The notes under the pieces were generated by a model that saw nothing but the letters and a program-made list of their open reading frames with translations, searched no databases and was not told the DNA's origin. Shown one piece after another: positions 4,672 to 64,000 of a stretch of DNA of 64,000 nucleotides. Where the stretch lies: IMG/VR virus record IMGVR_UViG_3300030117_003369, positions 1-64,000 of that record. The stretch is one strand, 5' to 3'. How positions within the stretch are numbered: position 1 is the stretch's first letter; each line of letters opens with the position of its first letter. The position numbers and the translations under genes are program-made. This stretch comes from a virus.

Positions 4672-4773
4672 AGAACAAGCCAGTGCCAATGCCAACAAAA
4701 ACTTAGCGCTGGTTTTGGTATACTAAAAACGATTTTTTTGTAATTTTTTTTCAAGCGCCGTATGGGGTTAGAA

Positions 4774-4840
4774 GGGGAAAAGTTGGGTGAAAAGTCCCAT
4801 TCCTCCGGTGAAAAGTCGAGGGGGTTTATAAGGGGGGGTA
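4774..4840 (+). promoter_or_regulatory. Putative archaeal TATA promoter with upstream direct repeats at the strand-divergence point
   Basis: TTTATAA at 4825-4831 flanked by G-runs. GGTGAAAAGTC at 4786 and 4807, GGGGAAAAGTT at 4774. Confidence 0.5.
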
Positions 4841-4951
4841 TGTTTTATTGTCTATCGGTGCTGGCCTTCACGGCTCGCACACCTGCCCCTGTTCATAGAG
4901 CAGGGTAGGTACCCCGCTTGCCTGTGAGGGTTGCATCGAGGAGATGACATT

Positions 4952-5404
4952 ATGTCGGACACAGAAACAACAACCCCAACAGGACTAACTGCTATGCAGT
5001 TGAACATGCTGGTCGCAGGGTACGAAGTAACGCTACCTTGCGGAACCACGGTTCACCCGAAAGCAGAGTCCTCGAACCACGAAGCGCAGCCTACGGCTAC
5101 CAAGCCAGCGGCTAAGACAGCACCAGCCAAAGCGAAGAAGCAGAAGAGCGACAAGTACGCACCTGCTGGCTTCAAATACCTAAGCAAGGTGAAACTGCGA
5201 GAGGCAAAAATCGCAGGACTCATCCCGTGGCTAACCACCGTGAACGATGCGATGGAGAAGTACGGCATGACGACTGACTTCGCACCGCACACCGCTAAGG
5301 CAAAGGCTGGCGCAACCAAGGTAACCGTAGCCGGTGCTACGGAGATGTCCAAGCGTGACTCTGACGACCTCGCTCGTCTAAAGCGCAAGGGCATCATTGC
5401 CTGA
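4952..5404 (+). CDS. Basic Lys/Ala-rich protein, first gene of the plus-strand block, possible nucleic-acid binder
   Basis: ORF 4931..5404, ATG 4952 after GAGGAG. PAAKTAPAKAKKQK linker. Confidence 0.8.
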   Translation: MSDTETTTPTGLTAMQLNMLVAGYEVTLPCGTTVHPKAESSNHEAQPTATKPAAKTAPAKAKKQKSDKYAPAGFKYLSKVKLREAKIAGLIPWLTTVNDAMEKYGMTTDFAPHTAKAKAGATKVTVAGATEMSKRDSDDLARLKRKGIIA

Positions 5405-6420
5405 GTCTAAGCCAAGACGCCGTAGGCGCACCTAGAACCACCGCTACACAAAGCGGCCCCCCAGCCGGTAGGTCAACAATGTTGCAAGCCGTGCTGATTA
5501 CGAGGTGAGAAGGGACACCTGTCAAAATAAAACGAGCGTGGTACCCGCCGCTTAACCAAACGGAGTTACCGGACTATACCGGCCCAGCACACGCGATCGT
5601 GTGCGACCATCTGTAGCGGCTGCCCCTATACGCAAATGTAGCGGCAGCCCTCGCAGAATATGGCGAACAACATATTTGGCATAAGCCGAACAAGGCCGGA
5701 CAACCAACCACCTTGCGGGCCAGTTTGCACAAAACAAAGGAACACACGCTGCAAATGCGGCGGAGTTAGATGCAAAGAGCGCTGAAAAAAAGCGCATTCT
5801 ATTCAGCGAGCCGTGTGGGTATTGACATCCCGCACCACATTCACTTCTTGTCATCCCAACATCGTGCGAGGAGATTAATGCGTTAGTACCGCACGGCTCA
5901 AGTCACCTTCACCTATTCACGAACCGTTGTACTGCGAGTCAGCGGCTCGTTACGAATACATGAAATACAACATGTACACTAGTCATGTAATCGAAACCGT
6001 AGTGCTTACGAATACATATACACACTACCCATAGATAATATATCTCTTATTTCTGTAAGGGGTATAGTGTATGTACTGTACATGAAACTACGAATACACG
6101 ACTAGTGGACACGATGTATTCCATGTACACGATGTACGCAGTACAGCGTTTAGCCTATTCAATGCAGATGTACGGAGGGCGTAGAGCCTAGTGGGAGAGC
6201 GAAGCAATTCGCTGTACGCTCGTAGAGATACCGCCACGAAAATCGACAGAGAACCCAAGACCTCTTCGGGGGCTGACAGTCGGGAAAGACCGGCACCTAT
6301 TCCTTCCGGCGACATAAACGCCGGTGTTCACGGGTCGTGTGAACACTCAGTGCATGTAGAGAGGCTGCATGTTGTTAGTAGCACGACCCCCCATTCCTTA
6401 TGCGCACACGATCGCATACA
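5405..6420 (+). ncRNA. Candidate large structured non-coding RNA (~1 kb), family not recognised
   Basis: No credible ORF. Many stems with G-U pairs, GCAA and cUUCGg tetraloops, nested long-range pairings and a 3' pseudoknot. Boundaries approximate. Confidence 0.7.
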
Positions 6421-6445
6421 TCACATTCCCTTGGAGGAAACAAAC

Positions 6446-6628
6446 ATGAGCATGAGTATAGAACAAGTTTGGAAGCACACCGAGTATCAGCGCAAAATGC
6501 TAACCAATGCAATTATGCGATACTTGGGGGCGATACCACATAAAGATTGGACTGAAGAGCAGAAAGCACTTTGGCGAGAAATGGCAGATGTGAACAACAC
6601 ATCAATCGAAGAATACTTCGGAATCTAA
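6446..6628 (+). CDS. Hypothetical protein
   Basis: 3' part of ORF 6191..6628, ATG 6446 after GGAGG. Confidence 0.7.
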   Translation: MSMSIEQVWKHTEYQRKMLTNAIMRYLGAIPHKDWTEEQKALWREMADVNNTSIEEYFGI

Positions 6629-6660
6629 ATCACATATCACATTCCCACGGAGGAAAACAC

Positions 6661-6966
6661 ATGAGGACAGGAGACACAACATACATTGTGGTAAGGTTTG
6701 AGGAACGGGGCATTACATGTGCCGGTACTCATCTTATCCGAGAATGCGCAGAGTTACAGGCAGAAAGCCTTAACGAAAGGCGCAACAAGATACATGAAGC
6801 AAAGTGGCGAGTACAGGAGTCTATGTACTATGACGACTACATGGACTATGCTTACTTCATAAGGCAGAAGAAAGCAGATTTGGCAAAACTCGCTGAAGAT
6901 TGCGGCATAGCAAAATCAGGTACTAAGCACGACATTGCTATGCGCATATTGCGAGCCTGCGAATAA
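6661..6966 (+). CDS. Small protein with C-terminal SAP-like DNA-binding motif
   Basis: ATG 6661 after GGAGG. KKADLAKLAEDCGIAKSGTKHDIAMRI fits the SAP helix-loop-helix pattern. Confidence 0.65.
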   Translation: MRTGDTTYIVVRFEERGITCAGTHLIRECAELQAESLNERRNKIHEAKWRVQESMYYDDYMDYAYFIRQKKADLAKLAEDCGIAKSGTKHDIAMRILRACE

Positions 6967-7193: not shown

Positions 7194-7727
7194 ATGAATA
7201 TAATGAGTATGACATTAGGAGATATACTAATGAATGCGACTGTGAACGGACAAGAAGTAGAGGTGACCGCAGGTGTACTTTTACACGGTGCTATGGCAGA
7301 CACATTCGATACGAATGTAACTGCAACAGAAGGCGAACTTGGCTGGGACACGGAATCAGAGCGCATTGAAGCAATAGCGGAAATAGCAGCAAAGAGAAAG
7401 CAGAAGGAAATTGCACGAAGAAACCGAGAAGCACGACGCAAGAAGGGTTCAGGTGCTTACAAGGGCAACTGGAAACCATCTAAGGGCACAAGAGTTGTGA
7501 CAACGACTACAGGCAAGATGACAAAGGCGGAGTTTGATGGCAGCAAGGCGAAGCATGACAAGATAATGGAGAGAGATGCTTCAGGTAAGCGTGTTCACAA
7601 TTGCGCTGCTGCTAAAGCATACAGGCATCAAGTTTACGAATACATGTCCAAGCAGCGTGACGATGCAGGTAATTTGATTCGCACTGAGCACCCTGATGCA
7701 AGGGCAGTACAGTTAGCGGGCATTTGA
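7194..7727 (+). CDS. Hypothetical protein, acidic N-terminus and basic C-terminus
   Basis: ORF track, exact start uncertain. Confidence 0.75.
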   Translation: MNIMSMTLGDILMNATVNGQEVEVTAGVLLHGAMADTFDTNVTATEGELGWDTESERIEAIAEIAAKRKQKEIARRNREARRKKGSGAYKGNWKPSKGTRVVTTTTGKMTKAEFDGSKAKHDKIMERDASGKRVHNCAAAKAYRHQVYEYMSKQRDDAGNLIRTEHPDARAVQLAGI

Positions 7728-8684: not shown

Positions 8685-11600
8685 ATGAACAGCGCAGAAA
8701 TGGAATACAACTTGAGCAGACACCCGGACCTGTACTACATGGACGAGGACGGGTTGATACGACTAAACGAAGAAGAATACGAGAAACAAACGGAGATGAA
8801 AACGATGATACCAACATTGACAACAGGCAAGAGAGATATGATTATACGAGCGAAGAATGGCAAAGTGTCACCTGATACTGAGAAGGACAAGAAATCCAAA
8901 CTAGATAGCATACAGGCGAGATACCCGAATGTGCAAATCTACTTGGAGTCCGATTGGGAGAGCATTGATGTTGCAGACATGGTTGCAGCAGAGAATGAGC
9001 ACACCAACTATGTACTGACACAGATTTGAGGCGAATAAATATGTCAACACATTGGATAAAATTAAGAGGCGAAGGAGGTACAACTTCTGACATGCTCAAG
9101 AGTTACGCAAGAGAAAATCATGTTGTAATGACTGAGGTAAAGCACTACTATTCATTTGAAATCATTCCTTGGGCTAAAATACACAAAAGTTTCGCCCATT
9201 GGCATGTTGCTATGGATGATGAAAATATGATTCTAATACACAATGCAGCAACGAATGTAACTGTCATGCTGACATTGGGTAGAGAATACGAGGAGGAATG
9301 AAAATGGTACGAAAAGTGTATAATTTGACACCGCACAGCATAGACATATGCGATAAGGAATTGAAGAAAGTAAAGAGCATCAAGCCTGATGGCTTGGTCG
9401 TGAGAGCAAAGATGGAAGAGGAGATATGGTGCACACTAGGTAACTCGGAAACGAGAATCCCCGTGTGGTCGATACAAGTCACCGACCCAATCGTGATAAA
9501 TGAATCACTTCAACTCACGATTGGCAAGACCCAAGAAATCTTCATCATCGTAAGCAGAATAGCCGCAGACGCGATCCTGAAGGATAATGGGGAAACCAAT
9601 GTCATATGGGATTATGTTTGGGAAGGCGTGAAACAAATCAATGTCTTGACCGTTCACAAATCACAGGTCAACAGAGAAACAGGTGAGCGATACGGGGCAC
9701 TAGGCTTCGCACTACAAGGACAGATAGGGAGATGAATGAATATGAGTAAACTAATTGATACGATGACATGGATGATAGGTTACATACCACGACTACACGA
9801 AATGCTAGTCGATGCAATCAGAGAAGGCGAGCAAGATTACAACCTAGTACATGAGATAGCAAACAGATACGATGAGATGTTTGGTACTGAACATGCACTA
9901 GCACTTGAGGAGGAGTTTAAATGAGTGAATTGAAGATTAGAATAGAGACAGACGAATGGATATACGAGGAGTGGATTGAATGAAGTGCTATGTTAATATC
10001 GAACACTTGTCACATAACCCAAGTGGTTCCCGCAAGAAGTGGTTTACTGATGGAGTTAAGACCTATGTATGTTCATTGACACCGGCCTATTTCATTTGGG
10101 AAAAGAACACCAAATATAATGACTATAATGGTTATTCGGGATATGTAAATTGCAAAGATGTGGAGTTGATTGAATGAAATACAAAAGACAAGGTGACGGC
10201 ACACTGTGCTACGGAATACTGGAAAGAATCGACTACTTCTTTGAAGAAGGATTCGATGAGAATGACAAAGGTGTGTTTGTGTTATTGGAACAAATGCAAG
10301 ACTACCTGTTGTGGACAGAAATGCAGAACACGATGGAGTCAATGCGCTTGAAGCAAAAGCAAGCACGAGCATTCATGGAAGGTGATTGGGAATGAGAAGT
10401 ACAGAAGAAAAGACGATTACAGCCGCACATGTTATGGCAGATTTGACCGGAGTCACACAGTATGTGTTTCGCATTGTGTGCTTTGAAGAGGATGGTTACA
10501 GTTGGCCTGAATACGACATTTCAGAGGATGAGTTGAAACATCACGACACACCTAACAGTGAATTGGTAACCATAGTGTTACCTAGCAGTAAGCAACAAAC
10601 AAACGAGGAGATGAACAAATGAAGATGACAACAGCAGAAAGAAACGAACTAGACAGACAACTATGGATAGGGACAGAATACGACCATAACTTCGGTATGG
10701 GTTGGGATGAAGAAGAAGTATTAGAGCACATGCGAGAGGTTTGCACTGTGACTGAGAAGTATAGCACAATTGCTTGCAATAATGGTACAATTGAACGCAC
10801 TACCACTTTACAATTCCATGACCGACAGGACATGATTGACTTCTACGAGTGCGAAATGAGACTCAAAGAGGACATTAAAGTGGATTACAAAGTTTGGGGG
10901 CACATTGACAGAATGACAATCGAGATTGAGCGACAGGTCAATTTCCTTGACAATGTGGATGCGATCAAGGCGTACTATCACGAAGGAGATGAAGAAGAAT
11001 GAGAATAATACACGCACCAAAATTAGCGATGGAAGTAATAGACAGAATGTGGGAAGAAGCAGGTTACATGGGTGGCAATCACACTGGTGATGACAGCAAC
11101 CCTTGGGTTGAGTTTGTTGGCGAATCTTTGATACTGTTGGCAAATATGTCAGTCGAAGAATATATGCAATTCCTATTAGAAATGCTACAAAGTAAGGAGG
11201 AATGAACATGATAAACGAACTAGACCTAATGGAAACACACTGGAATAACTACAAGGAGGACTACTCCGACCAAGCCATACTTCTTGCATCACACTTAGGT
11301 GTGTGCGTAAGTGAAGCCGAGTCATACATTTACAGCGAGGACTACTTGGTTCTCACAGACGAACAGGCTGACGAAGCAGTGCGTGAAGAAATAGAGGAAA
11401 TGGTATGGGCATTCAACCCATCCTTCCTATTTGCACACACAGGCGTAGACAGTGGTACACTCAAGATAGTGCAAGAGTCATTGTGCGAGGATGCAAACGA
11501 GGCAATCACGGCCATGATAAAAGACTTCGACTACTTTGTTGAAGAAGCAGTGCGTATGGATGGGCGAGGACATTTCCTTGCTGGCTACGACCACAAAGAG

Positions 11601-24243: not shown

Positions 24244-24786
24244 ATGAGTTGGAATAATGTAGAGAGAAAGATGGTTATGTTTTTGGACAGAATGCCTGAC
24301 AAAGCGGCAACACTGTACTTAGATGCAGAGTTGCCAAGAGCAGTAGAGAATGTACACAATGTACTATGCAGGCCTGACCTGCTAGACGAGGTTGTACTCA
24401 GACAGTACATGTGGACATACGAGAGTATACCTAACTACTCTTGGATGGTTTTGCATGCACATCACTTGGCGAAGAGGTACAACCGTTCCTCTTTCAATAG
24501 TGTAGACCAAGACATCTTAGACAGGATTGACAAGGTACACAAGTCACCAGTCCCACACAGATTGGGCGGTGACAGATTCACAGATGTACCGCTGTGCGTA
24601 CCTGAACAGTACAGGGCAGTGGCGTTTGAGAATCCACCACCACGCACCGAAGAGGATGCGTTGTACCACAGAGAACTTGAGATAGAATACTTAGAGTATG
24701 TGCCACTTGCAGATGCGGTGGATATTTACAAAGAGTATCAGGATCTCAAGGAGAGAGCACACATAGCGGGGTATTTACATGAATGA
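24244..24786 (+). CDS. Divergent paralog of the pyrimidine-dimer glycosylase-like protein at 34232
   Basis: Colinear similarity: FLDRMPDKAA/VLDESPTIAA, NYSWMVLHA/NFQWLAQHA, VPEQYR/MPDEYK, DAVDIY/DAVKAY. Confidence 0.55.
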   Translation: MSWNNVERKMVMFLDRMPDKAATLYLDAELPRAVENVHNVLCRPDLLDEVVLRQYMWTYESIPNYSWMVLHAHHLAKRYNRSSFNSVDQDILDRIDKVHKSPVPHRLGGDRFTDVPLCVPEQYRAVAFENPPPRTEEDALYHRELEIEYLEYVPLADAVDIYKEYQDLKERAHIAGYLHE

Positions 24787-25573
24787 CATTAAAGTAGTGA
24801 GGCAAGATAACTTAGACTTACTCTTCAGTCTTGAAAGTGAATCAATAGATTTAATTTATTGTGACATATTATACGGGACAGGCAAGGATTTCAAAGATTA
24901 CAAAGACATCAAAGCAGACAGAAAAACTGTTGAAGAACATTACATTCCGAGAATAAGGGAAATGCACAGGGTCTTGAAAAAAGATGGCAGTATCTATTTG
25001 CATATGGACACAAGAATTAACCATTGGTTAAGGTGTATCATGGATGACATATTCGGCTACAAATGTTTTAGAAATGAAATATCTTGGTGGTATAAAAGAT
25101 GGTCTAATGTGAGTTATGGTTATCAAAAAATGCACGATGTAATATTGTTTTACTCTAAAGGTAAAGGCACTTTCAACATACAGTATCAAGGGTATTCTCA
25201 ACCTGACACTATTGAAGATACAGTGAGGGGAGTTATTGATGGCAAACTTGTGAGGTTGAAAGACGAGAGTGGAAATTACATTAAGCGTCAAAAAGAAAAC
25301 AAAGGTGTTCCTTTACACGATGTGTGGGAAATGCAACATCTTCAACCCACATCTAAAGAACGGATTGGATATGCGACACAGAAACCAAAGGCACTGATTG
25401 AAAGAATAATAAAGGCAAGTAGTAACGAGGGGGATTTAGTTGCAGATTTCTATTTGGGTAGTGGAACCACGGCAGTAGTTTGTAAAGAATTGAATAGAAG
25501 ATTCATAGGATGCGACATAAGTGAAGTAGCGGTAAATACTACATTGAATAGACTAAAGGAGATGATTGAATGA
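24779..25573 (+). CDS. DNA amino-methyltransferase, beta class, with non-canonical motif IV (DILY)
   Basis: SIDLIYCDILYG, RVLKKDGSIY, FRNEI, YATQKPKALIERII, ADFYLGSGTT. Confidence 0.88.
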   Translation: MNDIKVVRQDNLDLLFSLESESIDLIYCDILYGTGKDFKDYKDIKADRKTVEEHYIPRIREMHRVLKKDGSIYLHMDTRINHWLRCIMDDIFGYKCFRNEISWWYKRWSNVSYGYQKMHDVILFYSKGKGTFNIQYQGYSQPDTIEDTVRGVIDGKLVRLKDESGNYIKRQKENKGVPLHDVWEMQHLQPTSKERIGYATQKPKALIERIIKASSNEGDLVADFYLGSGTTAVVCKELNRRFIGCDISEVAVNTTLNRLKEMIE

Positions 25574-53597: not shown

Positions 53598-56500
53598 TCA
53601 CTCCCCGCTATGGTCGCCTGTATTATAACTTGCATCCCCATCACTACCTTTTGGATGTAGTGTTTGGCTGTGCCTCGGCTGCACATTGTAATCGCCTTCT
53701 TCATCATCAGGAGACTTGCGACTTGCATCTGCTCTGAAGTGCTCAAGTGTGTTTTCAGACATAACTACTCTTGCTACCGGAGATCGGATGTCAGTCTTGT
53801 CATATCCTGTTACATCGACACCCTCAATCTTAGGCCCTTGACTTGTAGGTACTGTTGTGCTAGAACCGGGTGTAATCGAATAAACAGGTGCATATGGTGG
53901 GCTGCTAGGAGTACCTGTCAGTGCACCCGGTGCGTCACTTGTGAACAGTCCATATTTGCCTCCGGCTGTCGCTCTATAGAAGTTAGAGCCAACTTGGTCT
54001 GCACTGCTCTTCATTACAGGAGCAGGTCTGAAGAACTGTATGTGTTTACTGTCCAATACTTGAGCAGGTCTATACAAGAACTCTATCTTAGAATCAGTAA
54101 AATTAGTATTCTGTATAATAGGGTCGTGGTTAGCATCTTGGTATGGGTTGGACGAAGTAGATACACCCGTCTGCCCCCATCCCTTGACATCTAATACGCC
54201 TGAATGTCTGCTCCATTCCATGATGTAAGTGCCACCTAAAGGCCAGTATGCGTGTGCATTGGAGAATCTTGTAATTCCAGCAACCGGATTGGTGCTGAAG
54301 TTTAGAGCAGTCAGATCGAAATTACCTAATGTGCGACTGCCACCAGTCATGGCTCCTCTTAGATTGGTTCTCTGTCCCACTTCTCTGTCAGTGTGCAAAC
54401 TTGCTGCTTCCGTGGACATGATAACATACTCTCTGCTGACACCATCATTGAGTTCAGCGATAGTATCTACATCTAATCCCATTCGGATATCATCTCTAGC
54501 AACAGGGTCTACTAATCTAGTATCAGCAGTTACAGTTTCTACTCCTTCACCGACAGATGAACTTGGCTTGAGCAAGCCATCTTCGTCAGCCAAATCTAAT
54601 CTTGCACTAATACCTCTATCTATTTCGCTTGGCTGTAGTATTTCGTTACTTGGCCTAACTAATCCCTGTCCAAACGCAGGCTCGGCTGTGCTATGAGACA
54701 GGACTAAGCCTGTAGCCTCGTGTGTTTCGCTAACATCCATGAGCATACTTTCATTGAATACTGTAGGCCAGCGAACCCCTCTTCCATCTCCTCTGTCACC
54801 GACACGCATAGCGCTGGCTGGGTTAAACCAATCCGCAGTGCCCATGTTACTTGCATCGTTATTGGCAGTGTTAGCGTTACCACTGTAGCGGTCATTTCCG
54901 TCACCACCAAACAAGTCGTGTGCTGCTGGTCTATGAGTTACATTGGTGTCTTTGTAAGCATCTTCAGGGTCCCAAGATGGTCTGATACCAAATCCTCTTA
55001 CAGGGAATCTGCGAACATCTTCTCCACGAGTATTGCCCCACCAATCCACTAGGTAGTATCGATGCGCATTTGCTAATTCTGAAATGCCTTTACCTGCATG
55101 GTCGCCCGGATATTCTCTTCTGACTGTAGATGCATTTCTTATGGTTCTGATAGCACAACCAAACGGCTCAGTCATTCTTCTACCGTCGCTGTATCTGACC
55201 TGTCGCCCGATTTGGTCTTGGTTCAGCAGTGCACTGATTTGAGTTAATCTCTCAAGTATTCCTATGTAAGTAGCATTGAATGTTATGTCTGATTGAGAGC
55301 CAGTGTCCGTACCGACATAATCCCATCCGTTTGACTTGGTGTCTTGCTGTACAAATGGCCCATGGTAGTAACCTAACAGGGCGTTTGCATTAGCCACTTC
55401 TAACCAACCTCTGACATAGTTAGCCCAGCGTGGTCTATTGTATGCCTGTCTTATTCCAAATCTATAACCGAAGCAGTAATTGCGAGCGTATGCTGATGCT
55501 GATGTCATCTCTGCGTATGTTCTAGTTCTAACTCCAGTGTTGTCGTCAAATCCACCACATTCCATTCCATGTGTTTCGCCGCCCCAGCCAATCAATGCTG
55601 TTGCATAAGATTCTAAACGACTTACTGCGCCACCACCGTGCGAACCACCCGGCCAAAAGCCTGCAAAGTTATACTTCTCTGAACTATCTGTACCACCTTG
55701 GTGATTTAGAGTACCGGAACCATCGACAAGTGCATCTATTTGTGCAGCAGTGTATATCGATCCATCGTGACTTAGTGCTGTACCGCCATCATTGTCATGG
55801 TCGTGAGGCGGCGCTACCCACTTCATAGCAAAGCCAAACGGACCCTTGCTAGCGACATAGTTGAAGTCGTGATAATGTATAGTTTCAAAGAACTCAGGCA
55901 AATGGTTGTAAGGCTTTTTGTCTATAGGGGTATCTGCCACTCCGGTCTTGTCGTAGAAGTTACGAGTGCCACCTGTAGCAGTGTCACTGTACCAAGTAAA
56001 CGGTCTACCTAGATTTGGATGCCACATACAAAGATATGCGTCAGGTAAGTGTAGGCTGTTTGTGTCACCTGTACCATCAACTAATGATTTACCAAATCTC
56101 TCTTCCAATTGCTTTGGAGGGAAGAGTCTAGTCGCTATGCTGGATTTGACATCTGTGTAAATGCTATCAGAAGCGTATGTGTTGTAAGGTCTAGTCAATT
56201 TCAAAACAGCGTTTGCTGCAAGATTTGCCCAAAACTCTGCACTACCTGTCACACTCTCAAATGTAGTAGATACACCCAAAGTAGCGTGTGCCAAAGTACC
56301 TGTGCGGTTGCCATAAGTAGCAGTGTATGTTATTCCATTCTTAGTGTATTCCAACTGTTCACCATAATACGGATCGACAGGGAATAAGTCGTTATTATCG
56401 ACTGTGATTGTAGAGCCTCCGCTGTTAGTAGCGAGCACGACACAAGTTGGATTTAGGCTTCTATTGCGCCTGTGTACTTCGTAAATATCCATGAATGATG

Positions 56501-59500
56501 TAGGATATCCAGCAATTGTAATCTGTGCGCCCACGCAACCATAAGACATTCTGCAGAACTCGTAGTAGTTGTCAGGCTTGTGCCACTCTAAGTGCTTGAA
56601 CTTGTTAGCGCCGCTAGCAGTAGCACCGTCTTTGTGCAAAATACCCCACCAAGGAATTGTAACTGTGTAGCCCGGAGTAGCACTACTAAACATTCCCGGC
56701 TTGTAAGGTAGGCTTCTTCGACTCAGTGAAGGAGATGTAGTTTCCTGTACACCTAACGGGTTGTAAAGACCTAAAGAGGGGATATTTGCAAAATGGCTAC
56801 CGGAATCCGGCTCTATGTCGAGTATGACTTCATTGATAATTACTTCACAACCTCGTACATCAGCCATAATTGCTTCAGACAAAATGAGTGTGTGTGCTCC
56901 ATTTGTGCTAATATCTTGTTCAATTGCAATTACGGTGTTTACTTGTTGCCCAGTCAATTCAGTAACTTTGTCTCCGCTTTCAGAAGGTGCCTTAGCAGCA
57001 TCACTGTGGTTCAAATGGAAACCTTTGAGTTGCTGCGCAAACACATTCGGCTGTATCACAATTTGATAAGCACCGACTTCCATCGGATCGGGGAAGTGGT
57101 TATTGAGTGTGTATGTACCAGCCGCCTCTAATACTAATTCGTGTCCGCCAGCAGCATTCTTGCTACCTGCATCACCCACTGATGCCGCTATACCATAGCC
57201 CTCGTACTTGACTTTAGTTTCAGTCAATAGTGTAAATCCTCCACCGTGTATGTCAGATGGAGAGAACGCAGCAGTTGGTCCTGAGAAGTAAATGTAAGGG
57301 TCACGACCCGGTTCGTGCGTAGTTGTAGTTGCAGTTGCACTGGTTCTCGTACCTTCATTTGTACCAATCAAACTATCGATTGCAGGTGAATTGTTAGAAG
57401 TTCTACAACTTTGATTCAACTGATACAATCTTTGGTATGCAGGGTGAGCATAATGACCCGGCATCAAAGCCATAGTTGGATTGACATAATGGTGCCCCAT
57501 TCTTGGGACAGGCATAGGTGTCATCTTTGGCTTGACAATATTAGTATGTGCCGTTGATGGCCTAGACATGGCACCTGTATTTGCAGGTAAAGCGCCGTAC
57601 AGTGTGAACCAATCTGTAATCTTCATGTCAGGACTTGCACCACTGTATTCACTATGGTCCCGCAATCTACGGGATGCGAATATACGAGTGCTACCGGCAG
57701 GCATGTAGTAACTTGGTACAACCTTGAGGCCAGTTTTACCTGTAACAAACTCTACAAAATCAGGACTGTAAACTACACCTGTAAACTTGTTAGTCCCTAC
57801 ACCCGTATAAGAGGCAATTACACCTTTGTCAGTTGTTGGGTCATAAACTCTGAGGAAATATCTACCGCCACTTAATTCATTTGAATCAGTCCAAGTGGCA
57901 GTTTCAGGAGTAGAAGTTACAGTTATTTCTGTACCACTATAACTACTGTATGTCAATTCATCGACATCATCTCTGTGAGTCATACTCACACCCATCTTCG
58001 TTACATGGAAGTACAGGCTTCTGTCGTGTGGCTCATAAGATGTAGTCAATGGCTTGTTATCTGTATGGTCTAACCAACCTTCAGATGTAGAAGCAGGGAA
58101 ATTAAGTCTATGTTCATGCTTATCAATAGATACATCTGTCAAGTCTTGACTCAAATGCTCCCAACCATTATTCTCCCAAGTAGGCCAAAGGCGAGGACCT
58201 GCGTATGTATTGTCGAATATTTCCTTAATGTGCTGTACTGGTTGCGATGGGTGCTGAAGGCCACCTGAACCAATAGTTTCATTCTGATAGGCTTGAATGC
58301 GATCGAATCCGGGTCTGACAATTATGTTGCCCGGTATTTCATCAGGATTAGGTAGCCTAATCTTCATGTTAGGGGAAACACCTGTACCTGCCAATGCTGG
58401 GGCTAGACCTTGTATTTCTCTATCACTAACATGTCTAAAGTCCATAATAACTGTACCTAACGGAGAGCCACCTTCTAGTCTGTGCTCTTGACCCGTGTCG
58501 TCTACAACTGTCATGCTTTGGAATTGCATCTCTTCGTTTGGAATCATCAACGCATTCTTGATTTCTATTGGATGCTGTTCTGCCAACTGCGGGTGCGCCA
58601 ATTCCTGCGCTTGTATAACAGGGAACATTGCAGAGTTTGTAGATTCAAAACTAAACCTAACATTACCTAATACCTTTTCACCCACTAACTTGTACGAACC
58701 GCCGTCCTTTCGCTTCACCCATGGAACAGCCCCTAACCCTCTAGCATTAGCGGCAGGCATAGTTAGGCTACCGCCATCCATGCGCTTCCAAACTACATGT
58801 TCAGCCGAGAAGTTACGAGCAGCACTTCGCTTTTGATAATAACCAAACAATCCGGGGTGAGGCATAGCAGTGGTTGCTGCTGCAGGATTTAGGTAGTCCT
58901 TTATACCACTATTACCAATACATTCTACTCCATATGTACCAAAGTCCTCGTGGAAGTTAGAACCTTTGACTATACTCTCATCCCAATACAAATCACCAGT
59001 AGGGTGTAAACAAGCGTTGGCCTGTACCATGTCACCCGATTGTATTGTACGATGCCATTCTGCATCTGACGGAACAGCATTAGTTGCCGGATAATCTGTA
59101 TTGTCAAACGGTCTAGTGAAACCAGTGTGCATCTGTGCTTCTACACGAGGCCCAGCGTTAGCGTAAGCAACATATCTCGATTTGTTGTGCACTTTACCTG
59201 TGTCCCATTGAATTGTACCAGCGTGTAAAATGTTACCATTTTCCTTTGCCATCAGCCAATCGCCTGAACAAAGTATACCATCTCTGTCTGCTTTAGCAAT
59301 GAGTGGCAATTCACTTTCATTTGTGATTGCGATGAGGTGCCTTGAAGATAAACCGTTTACGCAATAATCGGAGAAAGTTGCCGTAGCAGTATCACCAGTG
59401 CCCACAGGGGCAGACGATGCTAAACAAGTTTCAGCAGCACCATACGGATTGAACCCAAGGAACGGATGCCAAGCGCCAAGTCCGGCAGGGTAGACTCCTG

Positions 59501-62500
59501 AGCCTATCTGAGTGCCTGTGTAAGAATTGAGATAGGAATAGGCTTCACCCGCCCAACCCACTGCGCCGATTGGCTTGGTTCTGTCTATTGCATCAATTAG
59601 CCCATTGTAGTGTACTTGACACATGTGATCTCGTGCAGTTACAGAGTTGTCGTTATTGTGCCTATGCGTACCGGCTTTAGTCCAAACATACGCCTTGTAA
59701 GTATTGTCTATCGTCAAATCCCTCATGTTTGTAGGGTCGGTTACATTAGAGTTAGCAATGACAGTATTGATTGAAACTCTAGCATCGCCTGAAGAGCCAC
59801 CTTGTTCAATAATCACCAGTTCTCCTGCTACATAGCCTGAGCCTGCATTAGTGATTGCGACACCTGTGACTCGACCTGCACTCACTGATGTTATTTCCAC
59901 AGTCAAGCCAGTACCGGAACCTCCAGTTGTAGGTAAACCTGCTGCTGTAGAATATCCAGCACTTCCCGGCGCTGCAATCGCTATGACGGAAGGGGTACTA
60001 AGGGCTGGACTTTTACCGAGTGTAAATGTAGTATTAGGTGCACTTATCGATTGACTAATGTAAGGTGCATAACCTGAGTTTGTCCCATCACTAAACCTAA
60101 GCCAACCGTAATCAGGAAGCGTGGTTGCCACACTAGTTACCCTAACAGAAGCAGCAGTGCCTCCTGATTGAGCAGTATACTGATTTACTGCAAGTTCTAC
60201 CCAACCGTACCTGTCCTGCTTGTGTGCGTTTTGCATAGATGGCAAGAATGTACCACCAATAGCCTTGAGAGGGTCTTTGCCGGGGAATGTATTGATAGAT
60301 GCGCTGATAACCGCCCCTAACTCTTCTGCGTTTTGTACACGGGTAGCATCAATTAACACTATGTTTTGGTCGCTCACTTGGTCGTCTGCAGAGCCATATG
60401 CTGCGACATAAGCCTCCGCTAACAACCCGCATGGCCTAAATGCAGACACATTGTGTTTGTTAGTACCACCTGTGGCTAATCTACCATTTTCAATTGGGTG
60501 CTTTGGATTTAGATTTACATGGTTATCAAGGAAATGACCGCCCGGATGATAACCTCCATCCATGTGCCAAATTGCAAACGCTTTCTTTGTAGCAGCATGC
60601 GAAGCACTCTGTAAAGTATTGCCAGCCAAATCGGTGAATGCGTGATTGAAAGGATGCGCTGTTGGCGGGAATGTCAGATGCGGAGAAGTAAAGTCTGAAC
60701 CTTCATAATAGAACGCCCTATCATATGTTTGTGCAAAACTATCTCCACTGCTTGCGTGTACTGCTACACTTGGGAATCCCTTAGTTGGCTCCCAATTCAT
60801 ATCATAATTAAAAGCGCTAAGTCTATTCTTTTGGAAGAAAGTCGTCCTTGGTAAATGAGCAGATGCAGCCAAAGTTCTGTTGAATCCACTTAAAGTGTCG
60901 TGTCCATTTGCCAATTGATTTGGTAAGAATGACGGAGAGTCACCCGTTGTGTAAATTGGCACGGCACTGTACCCGTTACCTGTAGTTACTATGTTCGATC
61001 CTTGCGGCTCAAATGTAGCACTGTTGTGAGGGAAGGCTTGGCCGGGACCAAACACCATGTAGATAGTTTGGTCGTTAGTATCTCCTGAAGAAGTGTACCT
61101 AGCGTGTGGGTGAGCAAACCGTAGTATGATAGGGCTTGGTAAGTTTACAGAAACTGTATTTGTACTGTCAGTGTAAGTCGTACCCGTGGCTTTGCTATTT
61201 GCACCTTTAGCCATATCAAACGGCAAAATGCCATCTTGGTTGAATAGAGGCGGGTTGTTTTTCCCTTTATGGTCGTCTAAGTATGGTGTACCGGGAAACA
61301 TAGCCAGCATGGCGTTAGTATCAAGGAGAGCATAAGAGCCAGCGATTTCTCCGACATTTTGTAGTCCGGCAGAACCTGTTGGGCCACCAGCATAAGGGTG
61401 CGTATAGAAATCGCCATAATCATTCTGAGTGCCGTCATTTACATCCATGACTACTCCGCTGAAGCCACCACCAAAGTACAACGGTACCCAGTGGTCCGGG
61501 CTATCTCTGCCGCCTCTAAAGTAAAGGAATGGGCTGGACATTTTGCTTCCAGCCCTACGGACTCCATCGGTTTTCATTCCGTTTTTGACATCACCGTTTC
61601 GCATCAAAATATCTGTGTTTCCACAATATGATGCAAAATTAGCGCTAACACCTGTAGCCGCTCCGTAAGTAAGTTTGGTTTCAACTGCCGCACCGGGTTT
61701 ACTAACGACTTCTGCATACTCCTCTGAACCCCACCAAATTGTAAATCGCTCGCCCCAAGCCTGTGCGTTGTCGGAACCCGGTACGCATATTGAGTACAAG
61801 TAACTGTTGCTATGGGTGGTTAGTTCGGTACCACTGTCAGCACTCAATAGAATCATAGGGCTATCAACCTTTGGAATGATATGGTCGCCCGCTATGCTAG
61901 TGTAATTGTCACCACGAAGGTTTCTTTGCCATGTCGATGCATCAACAGGGTTGTTTTGATTATCGACTAGTATAGGAGTGGCAGTATTAGCGTTAGTCCC
62001 TCTATAGCGAGTGGTAATGTGTAATACGGTTTCAGGGATATAACCCACATCTAATCGTGTACCGTCATCCCTTTCACTGTCACTAAGTCCACCAGTGTGC
62101 TTCGTTGAAACAACGGCGTCACTACTTGCACCCTCAACTAATCCCCAATCTTTGCCTCTCGACACCTCAAACAATTTGTTGAGTGGTGTTTTGGCTTTAG
62201 CATTAGACCTAACTTTGATTGCTTTAGGGCTAACTCCCCATTCTGCAAGCGTCTTGCCATCAGGTGCAAACATATGCGTACAGTCAAAGTAGTTGCCATC
62301 TTTTGTTGGGTCAGCATTCATAGCAAACTCAACTGCCGCTGCAATTACTTCGTCAGTGAGTACGCTTGTGAAGTTGATTCTTGGACTGATTAACAACCCC
62401 TCATTACCAGTTATAGCACGACCACCTGTACAGCCATAGAAGTAGTGCTTGTTAGATGCACCAGTATCACCATCGTGGTCGTAATGAGATCGGCTGGTGT

Positions 62501-64000
62501 AATGAATTGTAATTCCTTGGTCGCCACTGGTACCGGCATCATCTGTTAATTGCAACACTCCCGACTCAGGGAATCCAAGATAGCCCAATACATCAGGGTG
62601 AGTTAGTGTATCTCCTGTGCTGTAAGGTGCAGTAAGGGTGACATCTAATGTAACCCCTGTACCAGCAGACTTGTTACAAGTTGCATGTATTCCCACAGAC
62701 GGCGAAGGATAGTTATTCCAAAGGTTACCTTTGTATGGCTTAGCAGTACCTCCACTTTTTTCACCGCACACTTCACCTGTACCAACCATATGTTTACCAA
62801 TTGTAAATCCACCCTGTGCTACATCTTTGTCATCAAAGTAAATTACAACCTCTTCGTCAAATGTAGGTGGAACCATTGTTAAGTCGTTACCAAATGGCTT
62901 GTCACATTCTTTGTACACCATTCTGATAGTATGATTGTTGCCGATGTGGTCTGTAAATCTAAATCCGTATAGGTTGCCGTCACCTATGTTGTCAGGTTTC
63001 ATTTGCTCTTCAGGAATGTAACCAGTTGGATTGCTACTTGTATAAATCGTGCTACCTAACATGGCGGTAGCAGCGTTAGATGCGTTACCATATATTGCTT
63101 TGAATCTAGCCTCTCCATCTCTACCCATACCCCATTTGCCAGTATTAGGTGCCCAGCCCGGAATACCAGCCTGTGTCAAGCCACCAAAGTTAATGCGGGC
63201 CTTTGCAGTAGTTCCAATTCTGAGTCCATCCACCATTGTAGAAGATGGGCTTTTCGTTTCAAACGACTCGTTGATGACAGTGTTTGAGTTTCTACCCGAA
63301 GCGTTTTCACGGAATGCATCTGTCTTTTGTGTAGAACCAGCGACAGTTTCGGGACCGAGACTTAGATTGTTTTCAAACGAGTCTAATGTTTCTTCAGGCG
63401 GTATGAACTCTTTGAGGGTAGTGATTGGTGCAAACGGTCTGCCAAATCTATTGATTGGCATAGGCGCAGGGTGCATGTTTTCACCTGTCATTTCGTCAGG
63501 CTGGCACCAATAGTTACGGAATCTGCCACCATGCCCTATCAAATACTGTGGGCGATAAGGACTCTGCGCACGACTGTTGTCTAACCAAACACAGAAGTTT
63601 CTCCCCTGTGCACCCGGTACTGTAGAATGTATGACTACAGAGAAACCTTCTTTACCATTAGAGTCTAACATAACTCTACCAAGGTGAGCACGGACATACC
63701 CCATGTGGCTACCCTTATCGTGACTAGAGAATCCTTTCTTGATATCCCAAAATGGCGCAGGGTCGTGAGTAGAACCTGTGCTTTTACCTAAGTGCTGTTC
63801 TGCAGTTTTCTTGACATGCGTTCTACCATTCTTAGCACCGGCTTGGTTGATTAGTCTAACAACTTCAAGTGCAGCAGATTCTATGTTAGTGACACCATCT
63901 CTTAGTGCCACCTCGCCAAGATCGACTGTCAAACGGCGCACGAAATCCATCTGAGTCCAGTGGTCTAAGTGTTGCAGGCGGGTTTCTTCATGCCCACTTA
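53598..64000 (-). CDS. Giant virion structural protein (>3450 aa), 5' end outside the window
   Basis: Frame stays open from 63950 to the window edge. G/T/S/P/H-rich, within the late operon. Confidence 0.85.
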   Translation of the reverse strand, partial: SGHEETRLQHLDHWTQMDFVRRLTVDLGEVALRDGVTNIESAALEVVRLINQAGAKNGRTHVKKTAEQHLGKSTGSTHDPAPFWDIKKGFSSHDKGSHMGYVRAHLGRVMLDSNGKEGFSVVIHSTVPGAQGRNFCVWLDNSRAQSPYRPQYLIGHGGRFRNYWCQPDEMTGENMHPAPMPINRFGRPFAPITTLKEFIPPEETLDSFENNLSLGPETVAGSTQKTDAFRENASGRNSNTVINESFETKSPSSTMVDGLRIGTTAKARINFGGLTQAGIPGWAPNTGKWGMGRDGEARFKAIYGNASNAATAMLGSTIYTSSNPTGYIPEEQMKPDNIGDGNLYGFRFTDHIGNNHTIRMVYKECDKPFGNDLTMVPPTFDEEVVIYFDDKDVAQGGFTIGKHMVGTGEVCGEKSGGTAKPYKGNLWNNYPSPSVGIHATCNKSAGTGVTLDVTLTAPYSTGDTLTHPDVLGYLGFPESGVLQLTDDAGTSGDQGITIHYTSRSHYDHDGDTGASNKHYFYGCTGGRAITGNEGLLISPRINFTSVLTDEVIAAAVEFAMNADPTKDGNYFDCTHMFAPDGKTLAEWGVSPKAIKVRSNAKAKTPLNKLFEVSRGKDWGLVEGASSDAVVSTKHTGGLSDSERDDGTRLDVGYIPETVLHITTRYRGTNANTATPILVDNQNNPVDASTWQRNLRGDNYTSIAGDHIIPKVDSPMILLSADSGTELTTHSNSYLYSICVPGSDNAQAWGERFTIWWGSEEYAEVVSKPGAAVETKLTYGAATGVSANFASYCGNTDILMRNGDVKNGMKTDGVRRAGSKMSSPFLYFRGGRDSPDHWVPLYFGGGFSGVVMDVNDGTQNDYGDFYTHPYAGGPTGSAGLQNVGEIAGSYALLDTNAMLAMFPGTPYLDDHKGKNNPPLFNQDGILPFDMAKGANSKATGTTYTDSTNTVSVNLPSPIILRFAHPHARYTSSGDTNDQTIYMVFGPGQAFPHNSATFEPQGSNIVTTGNGYSAVPIYTTGDSPSFLPNQLANGHDTLSGFNRTLAASAHLPRTTFFQKNRLSAFNYDMNWEPTKGFPSVAVHASSGDSFAQTYDRAFYYEGSDFTSPHLTFPPTAHPFNHAFTDLAGNTLQSASHAATKKAFAIWHMDGGYHPGGHFLDNHVNLNPKHPIENGRLATGGTNKHNVSAFRPCGLLAEAYVAAYGSADDQVSDQNIVLIDATRVQNAEELGAVISASINTFPGKDPLKAIGGTFLPSMQNAHKQDRYGWVELAVNQYTAQSGGTAASVRVTSVATTLPDYGWLRFSDGTNSGYAPYISQSISAPNTTFTLGKSPALSTPSVIAIAAPGSAGYSTAAGLPTTGGSGTGLTVEITSVSAGRVTGVAITNAGSGYVAGELVIIEQGGSSGDARVSINTVIANSNVTDPTNMRDLTIDNTYKAYVWTKAGTHRHNNDNSVTARDHMCQVHYNGLIDAIDRTKPIGAVGWAGEAYSYLNSYTGTQIGSGVYPAGLGAWHPFLGFNPYGAAETCLASSAPVGTGDTATATFSDYCVNGLSSRHLIAITNESELPLIAKADRDGILCSGDWLMAKENGNILHAGTIQWDTGKVHNKSRYVAYANAGPRVEAQMHTGFTRPFDNTDYPATNAVPSDAEWHRTIQSGDMVQANACLHPTGDLYWDESIVKGSNFHEDFGTYGVECIGNSGIKDYLNPAAATTAMPHPGLFGYYQKRSAARNFSAEHVVWKRMDGGSLTMPAANARGLGAVPWVKRKDGGSYKLVGEKVLGNVRFSFESTNSAMFPVIQAQELAHPQLAEQHPIEIKNALMIPNEEMQFQSMTVVDDTGQEHRLEGGSPLGTVIMDFRHVSDREIQGLAPALAGTGVSPNMKIRLPNPDEIPGNIIVRPGFDRIQAYQNETIGSGGLQHPSQPVQHIKEIFDNTYAGPRLWPTWENNGWEHLSQDLTDVSIDKHEHRLNFPASTSEGWLDHTDNKPLTTSYEPHDRSLYFHVTKMGVSMTHRDDVDELTYSSYSGTEITVTSTPETATWTDSNELSGGRYFLRVYDPTTDKGVIASYTGVGTNKFTGVVYSPDFVEFVTGKTGLKVVPSYYMPAGSTRIFASRRLRDHSEYSGASPDMKITDWFTLYGALPANTGAMSRPSTAHTNIVKPKMTPMPVPRMGHHYVNPTMALMPGHYAHPAYQRLYQLNQSCRTSNNSPAIDSLIGTNEGTRTSATATTTTHEPGRDPYIYFSGPTAAFSPSDIHGGGFTLLTETKVKYEGYGIAASVGDAGSKNAAGGHELVLEAAGTYTLNNHFPDPMEVGAYQIVIQPNVFAQQLKGFHLNHSDAAKAPSESGDKVTELTGQQVNTVIAIEQDISTNGAHTLILSEAIMADVRGCEVIINEVILDIEPDSGSHFANIPSLGLYNPLGVQETTSPSLSRRSLPYKPGMFSSATPGYTVTIPWWGILHKDGATASGANKFKHLEWHKPDNYYEFCRMSYGCVGAQITIAGYPTSFMDIYEVHRRNRSLNPTCVVLATNSGGSTITVDNNDLFPVDPYYGEQLEYTKNGITYTATYGNRTGTLAHATLGVSTTFESVTGSAEFWANLAANAVLKLTRPYNTYASDSIYTDVKSSIATRLFPPKQLEERFGKSLVDGTGDTNSLHLPDAYLCMWHPNLGRPFTWYSDTATGGTRNFYDKTGVADTPIDKKPYNHLPEFFETIHYHDFNYVASKGPFGFAMKWVAPPHDHDNDGGTALSHDGSIYTAAQIDALVDGSGTLNHQGGTDSSEKYNFAGFWPGGSHGGGAVSRLESYATALIGWGGETHGMECGGFDDNTGVRTRTYAEMTSASAYARNYCFGYRFGIRQAYNRPRWANYVRGWLEVANANALLGYYHGPFVQQDTKSNGWDYVGTDTGSQSDITFNATYIGILERLTQISALLNQDQIGRQVRYSDGRRMTEPFGCAIRTIRNASTVRREYPGDHAGKGISELANAHRYYLVDWWGNTRGEDVRRFPVRGFGIRPSWDPEDAYKDTNVTHRPAAHDLFGGDGNDRYSGNANTANNDASNMGTADWFNPASAMRVGDRGDGRGVRWPTVFNESMLMDVSETHEATGLVLSHSTAEPAFGQGLVRPSNEILQPSEIDRGISARLDLADEDGLLKPSSSVGEGVETVTADTRLVDPVARDDIRMGLDVDTIAELNDGVSREYVIMSTEAASLHTDREVGQRTNLRGAMTGGSRTLGNFDLTALNFSTNPVAGITRFSNAHAYWPLGGTYIMEWSRHSGVLDVKGWGQTGVSTSSNPYQDANHDPIIQNTNFTDSKIEFLYRPAQVLDSKHIQFFRPAPVMKSSADQVGSNFYRATAGGKYGLFTSDAPGALTGTPSSPPYAPVYSITPGSSTTVPTSQGPKIEGVDVTGYDKTDIRSPVARVVMSENTLEHFRADASRKSPDDEEGDYNVQPRHSQTLHPKGSDGDASYNTGDHSGE

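Follow-up and report, generated by a model that had tools for sequence, protein, structure and literature searches.

A mosaic non-coding region, a proposed control region with a candidate replication origin, in a magrovirus genome

Results

A single kilobase-scale gap in a closed viral genome

This study concerns a non-coding gap of 1041 nucleotides (nt) in a viral genome from the IMG/VR database. The DNA analysed, here called the window, is the first 64 kb (64,000 nt) of the 109,462-bp record IMGVR_UViG_3300030117_003369, and all coordinates refer to it unless stated otherwise. The gap (5405-6445) runs from the stop codon of the gene 4952-5404 to the ATG at 6446. An initial annotation of the window, made from the letters alone, had called it the only kilobase-scale gap, and this holds for the whole 109,462-bp genome, in which other apparent gaps contain long genes. 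The same annotation took the gap for one large non-coding RNA (ncRNA) or ribozyme at the head of the plus-strand transcription unit. In fact, it sits behind the first plus-strand gene and not at the very head.

Stop codons occur in all six frames of the gap, and reassigning any one stop codon does not yield a frame that looks like protein; a TAG read-through frame was rejected on the grounds that the resulting string does not resemble a protein. Likewise rejected was an open frame from GTG 6191, the only open plus-strand frame there, which has no ribosome-binding site and is interrupted by a stop in the related locus L083. A tRNA search found none. The non-coding DNA has 53-57% GC compared with 44% for the genome, and its plus strand is A-rich. 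At the gathering threshold, Rfam gave no match in the whole window, and a search of 4700-6700 with E values up to 5 returned two chance-level matches of 15-20 bits (cut-offs, 45 and 330). The initial annotation had not recognized an RNA family, and indeed none was matched, GOLLD, ROOL, HEARO, ribozymes and introns included. A scan for sigma-70 promoters, a consensus not relevant to an archaeal host, was also negative, and complementarity of the gap to the rest of the genome was at chance level except for a repeat word described below.

The virus encodes a family B DNA polymerase (PolB), an SNF2 helicase and a Cpn60-type chaperonin that scores as an archaeal thermosome subunit; further genes specify an RFC-like clamp-loader ATPase, two nucleases and two DNA methyltransferases. 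A thermosome together with an SNF2 helicase is the reported combination of group A magroviruses (PMC5434244), and the PolB is closest to those of haloarchaeal tailed viruses (24-25% identity). Given this gene combination, the archaeal type of the thermosome and the affinity of the PolB, the earlier assignment to an archaeal magrovirus stands. The record ends (G000 1-97 and 109366-109462, in coordinates of the full record) overlap by ~97 nt with one mismatch at base 1, from which we take the assembly to be closed; IMG/VR lists it as linear. Genes point leftward up to 4698 and rightward from 4952 to ~49 kb, and the two blocks converge near 50 kb, so that the gap lies close to the switch of gene strand. 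The replication genes (RFC-like, PolB, nucleases, SNF2) are not beside the gap but 22-38 kb away. Two magrovirus papers checked for the terms (PMC5434244, PMC11706807) make no reference to a replication origin or to elements that are non-coding or intergenic.

The core of the gap is conserved at the nucleotide level

Seven homologous copies of the gap (L081, L082, L083, L084, L085, L086 and L123) were recovered by means of the neighbouring protein and exact words. L086 is a full-length copy with 92.5% identity over window positions 5585-6303, L083 is 82% identical over 5666-6263, and L081 is a 99% identical copy that ends at window position 5985; L082, L084, L085 and L123 are partial. Identity across the core 5585-6303 is 82-92% in copies whose neighbouring protein shares just 57-66%, the adjacent gene of L083 reaching 75% at the nucleotide and 66% at the amino acid level. 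Moreover, 62 nt (6183-6244) are invariant in three lineages, those of the window, L086 and L083. Because the identity of the core exceeds that of the adjacent gene, and given the invariant block, the non-coding core is, as judged from these alignments, under purifying selection at the nucleotide level.

Other searches delimited the set of copies. PolB led to 78 related IMG/VR loci; 49 records were searched, none of which contained DNA similar to the gap, and a DNA search of GenBank phages had no match. The flanking proteins 4952-5404 and 7194-7727 were not found in the 15 longest relatives, nor did protein-pattern scans of viral contigs for the flanking protein give a match. Exact-word scans of viral contigs found real matches only in L086 and L123, the 36 others being due to chance, as were all six matches of an 18-mer scan of prokaryote genomes.

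Conservation is combined with a mosaic make-up, in which modules are shuffled between the copies. Alignment and a segment map delimit a variable 5′ module on the plus strand (5405-5584) that is kept in the window, L081, L085 and partly L123; L082, L083 and L086 have other sequence in its place. A 60-nt module with a 13-bp stem occurs in L082, L083, L085 and L086, and is missing from the window. Where the window has 5612-5650, L083 and L085 carry a different hairpin, and where it has 5655-5800, L082 and L123 carry an unrelated 150-nt module. Finally, L086 lacks an optional plus-strand segment of ~93 nt (6300-6392), in which the window has three small hairpins. The segment is bordered by a direct repeat (CCTATTCC / CCCATTCC), which makes its exact borders ambiguous; that its length is a multiple of three we took as chance rather than a sign of coding. 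The word CCTATTC stands at three module borders (5912, 6154 and 6296).

A two-strand palindrome at the GC-skew minimum

Repeats, folding and alignment all delimit an imperfect palindrome of 230 nt (5920-6153) within the conserved core. Its arms (5922-6007 and 6088-6151), which contain TACGAATACA repeats at 5951, 6007 and 6089, flank an AT-rich centre of 80 nt (6008-6087) with one substitution in L086 and three in L083 (97-99% identity). This arrangement, in which inverted repeats enclose a conserved AT-rich sequence within long intergenic DNA, matches an anatomical feature of archaeal-type replication origins. The cumulative GC skew of the whole genome has its minimum at 6053, the centre of the palindrome.

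Relative to shuffled sequences, the palindrome of the window folds with z-scores of -5.5 on the plus and -6.9 on the minus strand; across the window, L086 and L083, both strands score between -5 and -9 and neither is consistently favoured. Where the arms carry substitutions, pairs are lost without compensation (two of two in L086, eight of nine in L083), while the total fold energy is kept. Since the fold is equally good on both strands and the arm changes are uncompensated, the palindrome is a conserved DNA inverted repeat, a feature of both strands rather than of an RNA.

The 12-13-nt palindrome repeat (TTACGAATACATG) recurs exactly at two further sites, 7634 and 19564, both inside early genes; a recurrence of five copies, three in the arms and these two, is unlikely by chance. 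GTAC is clustered in the palindrome, with 6.6-fold enrichment. The densest GTAC cluster of the genome is found elsewhere, with 10 occurrences in 330 nt (24300-24680) just upstream of a DNA methyltransferase gene (24779-25573). In L081, the first repeat pair (L081 1690-1728, window 5945-5985) shows eight differences in ~25 nt right before the contig end, with both tandem units altered in parallel (AATAC to ATTCC) in a copy that is otherwise 99% identical. This patch stems either from conversion or from misassembly.

The gap does not behave as one folded RNA

The whole gap folds better than shuffled controls, as a structured RNA should, with minimum free energy z-scores of -6.9 (plus) and -3.9 (minus); seven 1041-nt control chunks of the same genome scored -0.9, 0.1, -0.8, -4.3, 1.0, -3.9 and 0.1. 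The stronger plus-strand value is partly an effect of composition, because the G/U-rich minus strand has better-folding shuffles, and about half of the fold signal comes from the two-strand DNA palindrome. In addition, the excess is uneven. Windows of 200 nt within 5500-5800 scored -4.2 to -4.7, and 5405-5587 had no excess (-0.9).

The local helices listed in the initial annotation are present (5587-5593/5598-5604, 5618-5624/5643-5649, 6198-6213 with a GCAA loop, and 6261-6272 with a UUCG loop), as are the longer ones (5808-5826/5882-5899 and 5925-5936/6137-6148), and a repeat search recovered the main helices. The proposed long-range pairs, 5533-5539/6216-6222 and the gapped 5464-5473/6295-6310, also exist in the window. 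They cannot, however, be conserved in relatives, because 5405-5584 is replaced in L082, L083 and L086 and because L086 lacks 6300-6392.

Covariation, which the annotation had proposed to look for among homologues, was largely absent, in tests that rest on three to seven sequences and have no real power. When the window's fold of 5655-6305 was projected onto the alignment, seven changed pairs were kept and 11 broken in L086, and seven kept and 34 broken in L083. There were no double changes, and controls with slid 3′ partners did equally well or better. G-U pairs had been read as a mark of selection on plus-strand RNA. Across the Watson-Crick helices of the window and its homologues we counted 12 G-T and 15 A-C single mismatches (shuffles, 24 and 56); the argument fails because G-T mismatches do not outnumber A-C mismatches. 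Furthermore, the most conserved block of the gap (6154-6303 in the alignment, plus strand), which carries one hairpin with a GNRA loop (6198-6213) and one with a UUCG loop (6261-6272), is devoid of excess structure: 6154-6262, which holds the former and adjoins the latter, scored 0.0 (plus) and +0.7 (minus), and the windows 6100-6299 and 6200-6399, which cover the UUCG hairpin, scored -0.3 and -1.2. No conserved reading frame was found in 6154-6303 either. With interchangeable modules, no global covariation, no excess of G-U pairs and an unstructured block where conservation is highest, the reading as a single ornate RNA or ribozyme is not supported.

Local hairpin modules outside the palindrome

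Several hairpins keep their shape through sequence change, namely 5618-5649, 5804-5899 and the 13-bp stem that is found only in relatives. The first of these forms the module 5612-5650 (5618-5624/5643-5649, with a conserved loop) and is marked by a double change from C-G to G-C at 5623/5644 common to L086, L082 and L123; its alignment fold energy is equal on the two strands (-38.5 versus -38.0). The second is a long plus-strand stem-loop with an 18-bp helix and an apical stem (5804-5899; z -4.3 in the window). It forms a single long hairpin in four variants, with z-scores of -4.3 to -5.7 on the plus and -1.5 to -3.5 on the minus strand and alignment folds of -19.1 and -10.6 respectively. Its 5′ strand is invariant, and the apical stem differs in sequence in L083 and L123. 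Column-wise pair counts were not used here, as the register of the basal helix shifts between variants. In the 13-bp stem, one double change (L085) and three wobble-compatible changes (L083) leave 52 of 52 cells paired; with four sequences, this covariation is not significant (125 of 500 shuffles).

Upstream of 5612-5650 lies a 7-bp hairpin with a CGAT loop (5587-5604) that is kept in L081, L082, L085, L086 and L123, and L083 has a perfect 16-nt palindrome at its position. Between 5612-5650 and 5804-5899, a conserved A/C-rich plus-strand block (5655-5800) is 82-93% identical in L083, L085 and L086, with z-scores of -1.8 to -2.7 (plus) and -1.6 to +1.5 (minus); it ends in a hairpin with an A7 loop (5779-5795) and a T-rich tail, a terminator-like match on the plus strand. 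Taken together, the alignments make a function of individual hairpin modules at the RNA level possible.

A perfect 13-nt inverted repeat connects 5593-5605 with 6403-6415, 797 nt apart. Its 3′ copy belongs to the first early-gene cassette (see below) and could compete with hairpin 5587-5604. Both copies are identical in L086.

A putative upstream control block and repeated early-gene cassettes

A plus-strand block upstream of the first gene (4733-4831), which aligns with relatives, starts with T-runs (4733-4752), followed by three GGTGAAAAGT-like repeats (4774-4783, 4787-4796 and 4807-4816) around a conserved CCATTCCTCC box, and ends in TTTATAA (4825-4831), the single plus-strand copy of this word in the 109-kb genome. 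By its sequence the block is a putative promoter. It is also the most widely conserved intergenic sequence in these viruses, being found at the divergence point of L086 (7455-7570), L129 (4400-4510), L127 (1300-1460), L128 (reverse, 9480-9600) and L157 (1-200). Each lineage has its own short repeat word in three to nine copies just before a TATA-like box, i.e. GGTGAAAAGT in the window, GCAAATTC in G028, GTCTAAAC in G023 and G026, and GTAAACTCC in G035; these words look like sites of a co-evolving regulator or initiator.

The first plus-strand gene (4952-5404), whose stop codon abuts the gap, encodes a Lys/Ala-rich protein of 150 amino acids with 14 homologues in marine metagenomes. No Pfam or PHROG family matched this protein, and its AlphaFold model is poor (pLDDT 51). 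L086 and G028 have different Lys-rich genes at this position.

At its other end the gap closes with the upstream cassette of the first early gene (6393-6445, plus strand), composed of a hairpin (6399-6416), ATCACATTCC (6420-6429) and GGAGGA before the ATG at 6446. The word ATCACATT, which is related to the border word CCTATTC, has six plus-strand copies in the genome, four of which lie 22-42 nt before the starts 6446, 6661, 6990 and 7194. The corresponding ATCACATT(C) cassettes, at 6420, 6636, 6966 and 7152, each stand behind a small hairpin that begins with ATGCGCA. Between 4860 and 6445, the plus strand is free of T5 runs.

Further from the gap, two giant genes occupy the minus strand (53598-64000, ~3,700 amino acids, and G000 64649-69607, 1,652 amino acids). 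Neither gave a Pfam or PDB sequence match, and the sole match was a weak one to a PHROG head-closure family. N4-type hairpin promoters served by a giant virion RNA polymerase were considered and rejected, because the protein 53598-63950 matched nothing in Pfam, among polymerase PHROGs or among PDB sequences. An HMG-CoA-lyase-like gene (Pfam HMGL-like) at 1548-2405 is present in eight of 49 related virus records at 44-93% identity.

Comparable loci in distant relatives, and contig ends

In G034 (PolB 64% identical), an 806-nt non-coding hairpin array that ends in an AT-centred palindrome lies just before the first early gene. It has z-scores of -10.7 (sense) and -8.3 (antisense). In G030, an AT-centred palindrome and then TTTATAAG precede the first early gene, with the GC-skew minimum (1283) just past the palindrome. 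Both palindromes occupy the same genomic position as that of the window, and neither locus can be aligned with it in sequence. In G029, nothing comparable was found in the first 8 kb.

Long contigs of relatives often end in or near the locus (L083, L123, G028, G030 and G035). The ends are scattered over ~2 kb with no shared coordinate, which is more in line with assemblies breaking at a palindromic site that varies between strains than with a single fixed end of the genome.

Discussion

Our leading, if still tentative, interpretation is that the gap is a composite and mosaic early control region that holds a probable replication origin, flanked by hairpin modules that are probably transcribed, and not one folded RNA. 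Anatomy, position and analogy suggest that the palindrome 5920-6153 is probably the viral origin, in which an initiator would bind the repeats and the element between them would unwind. On both sides, the GC-rich hairpin modules probably lie in an early plus-strand transcript starting at the TTTATAA box (4825), promoter and transcript both being predicted from the sequence. Individual hairpins might act locally, as RNA or DNA, to terminate, process or stabilize transcripts or to bind proteins; transcription across the region may also help the origin to open or to be primed. The control region would close with the first early-gene cassette.

Several observations weigh against this interpretation. 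The GC-skew curve is flat between 4 and 7 kb, and its minimum is not independent evidence because it coincides with the switch of gene orientation; the AT skew changes at ~4950 and not at 6050. No initiator gene (Orc1/Cdc6, MCM or Rep) was recognized beside the gap, where the flanking proteins have no Pfam or PHROG family, and no recognizable origin recognition boxes were found. Among the distant relatives, the GC skew of G034 is not simple, and G023 and G026 have only a weakly structured spacer of 330-390 nt (z -1.0 to -1.5) with no obvious palindrome. The plus strand of the non-coding DNA is A-rich, as in a transcribed strand, and a pure DNA reading has no need of hairpins that keep their shape through sequence change.

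In chromosomal origins of haloarchaea and other euryarchaea, inverted repeats flank an AT-rich unwinding stretch next to orc1/cdc6. The window shares with haloarchaeal origins the inverted arms with repeated words, the conserved AT-rich core, the long intergenic region and the divergent genes, and, with the reservation made above, the GC-skew minimum. It differs in having no adjacent initiator gene, no recognizable origin recognition box and a viral setting, and the comparison is one of anatomy only. Origins activated by transcription are established in bacterial systems, i.e. T4 ori(uvsY) and ori(34), the T7 primary origin and ColE1 RNA II. The likeness to these is one of layout only, with structured non-coding DNA behind a candidate promoter and an AT-rich element behind that; homology in sequence or structure is lacking.

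The strongest competitor, which we consider possible although rather unlikely, is that one or several structured ncRNAs are made from the plus strand. They would comprise the modules 5587-5650, 5804-5899, the 13-bp stem and perhaps 6154-6303, start at the 4825 promoter or internally, and serve as decoy, scaffold, processing or stability signals, or primer RNA. Such RNAs would account for the more negative plus-strand z-scores, both of the whole gap and of modules outside the palindrome, but part of that difference is compositional. They would also explain why the alignment fold of 5804-5899 is better on the plus strand and why its apical stem has been swapped for a different pairing sequence. 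The compensatory double changes at 5623/5644 and in the 13-bp stem of L085, along with the three wobble-compatible changes in L083, point in the same direction; against them, changed pairs in the projected fold are mostly broken, no better than in slid controls, G-T mismatches are not above A-C, and the covariation counts from four sequences do not reach significance. The GC-rich non-coding DNA in a GC-poorer genome, with its A-rich plus strand, and the TATA-like box upstream of the spacer in G023 and G026 are likewise in keeping with an RNA product. The lack of T5 runs, however, is not unusual, as the 41 kb of the plus block contain only 11, and neither the z-score of about zero for the invariant block nor the failure of Rfam to match even at E values up to 5 favours an RNA. 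A more specific version seems less probable again, namely that the modules form a long, modular and fast-evolving ncRNA, or a string of small RNAs punctuated by CCTATTC, that is made from the single TTTATAA promoter and acts within minutes of the start of infection of Poseidoniales archaea, for example as a decoy or scaffold for proteins of host or virus, or as the primer of the adjacent origin. Among archaeal viruses, such a transcript would be the first large structured RNA on record, and if the RNA reading is true it would represent a new class of viral RNA in Archaea. With GOLLD, ROOL, HEARO and OLE the window shares hundreds of nt of hairpin-rich non-coding sequence in a virus genome; unlike them, it has no Rfam match or conserved long-range helices, its modules are interchangeable, and half of its fold signal derives from a DNA palindrome.

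Improbable, in our view, is a region that controls transcription and contains no origin. Here, the palindrome would be a bidirectional promoter or operator, its repeats regulator sites, the hairpins terminators or attenuators (cf. the terminator-like hairpin 5779-5795), and CCTATTC and ATCACATT promoter or start elements as in halovirus HF2. The placement of these words suits such a scheme, ATCACATT before four early genes and CCTATTC at module borders, but they were defined after inspection of the data. In G034 and G030 the AT-rich centre of the palindrome is 50-140 nt from the first early gene; in the window, by contrast, it is 370 nt from the next gene, and 1 kb with a 230-nt palindrome far exceeds what archaeal promoters are known to need. 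The intergenic repeats of HF2, which are 29-58 bp long and AT-rich, are proven promoters, and a bidirectional promoter region of HF2 that contains three direct repeats is likewise conserved (PMC8707807). The window resembles this PolB relative in its short word before successive early genes and in three direct repeats at the divergent point (4774-4816), whereas its words are not AT-rich, and no 1-kb hairpin array is reported for HF2. The promoter-bearing repeats of HF2 are the nearest described parallel for the repeated early-gene word.

Similarly placed is the proposal that physical genome ends lie here: a linear genome with terminal repeats and gene blocks read inward, in which recognition by the terminase and the processing of concatemers would rely on the palindrome and repeats. 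We rate it as quite improbable. HF1 and HF2, both PolB relatives, have linear genomes with terminal repeats, which counts in its favour. Genes do diverge at the locus and converge at ~50 kb, and the five relative contigs named above end within ~0-1 kb of the region. Their ends are scattered, however, and L086, G034, G023 and G026 read straight through, while the window's own contig closes on itself elsewhere through its 97-nt overlap. Least of all do we expect gene decay or an inserted non-autonomous mobile element, now functionless: the perfect 13-nt inverted repeat, the gain and loss of modules at short direct repeats among relatives, and the missing or short region in G023, G026 and G029 are outweighed by conservation above the neighbouring gene with its 62-nt invariant block, the lack of a protein-like frame, the absence of other copies from the genome and 49 related records, and a position that is fixed in all carriers.

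Magroviruses, none of which has been cultivated, count among the most abundant viruses of archaea in the surface ocean. The locus accounts for a practical nuisance, in that magrovirus assemblies tend to break there. It is the one place in this genome where selection clearly acts on nucleotides rather than on protein, and it offers a specific candidate for both the origin of replication and the early switch of these viruses, at the point where their gene blocks diverge.

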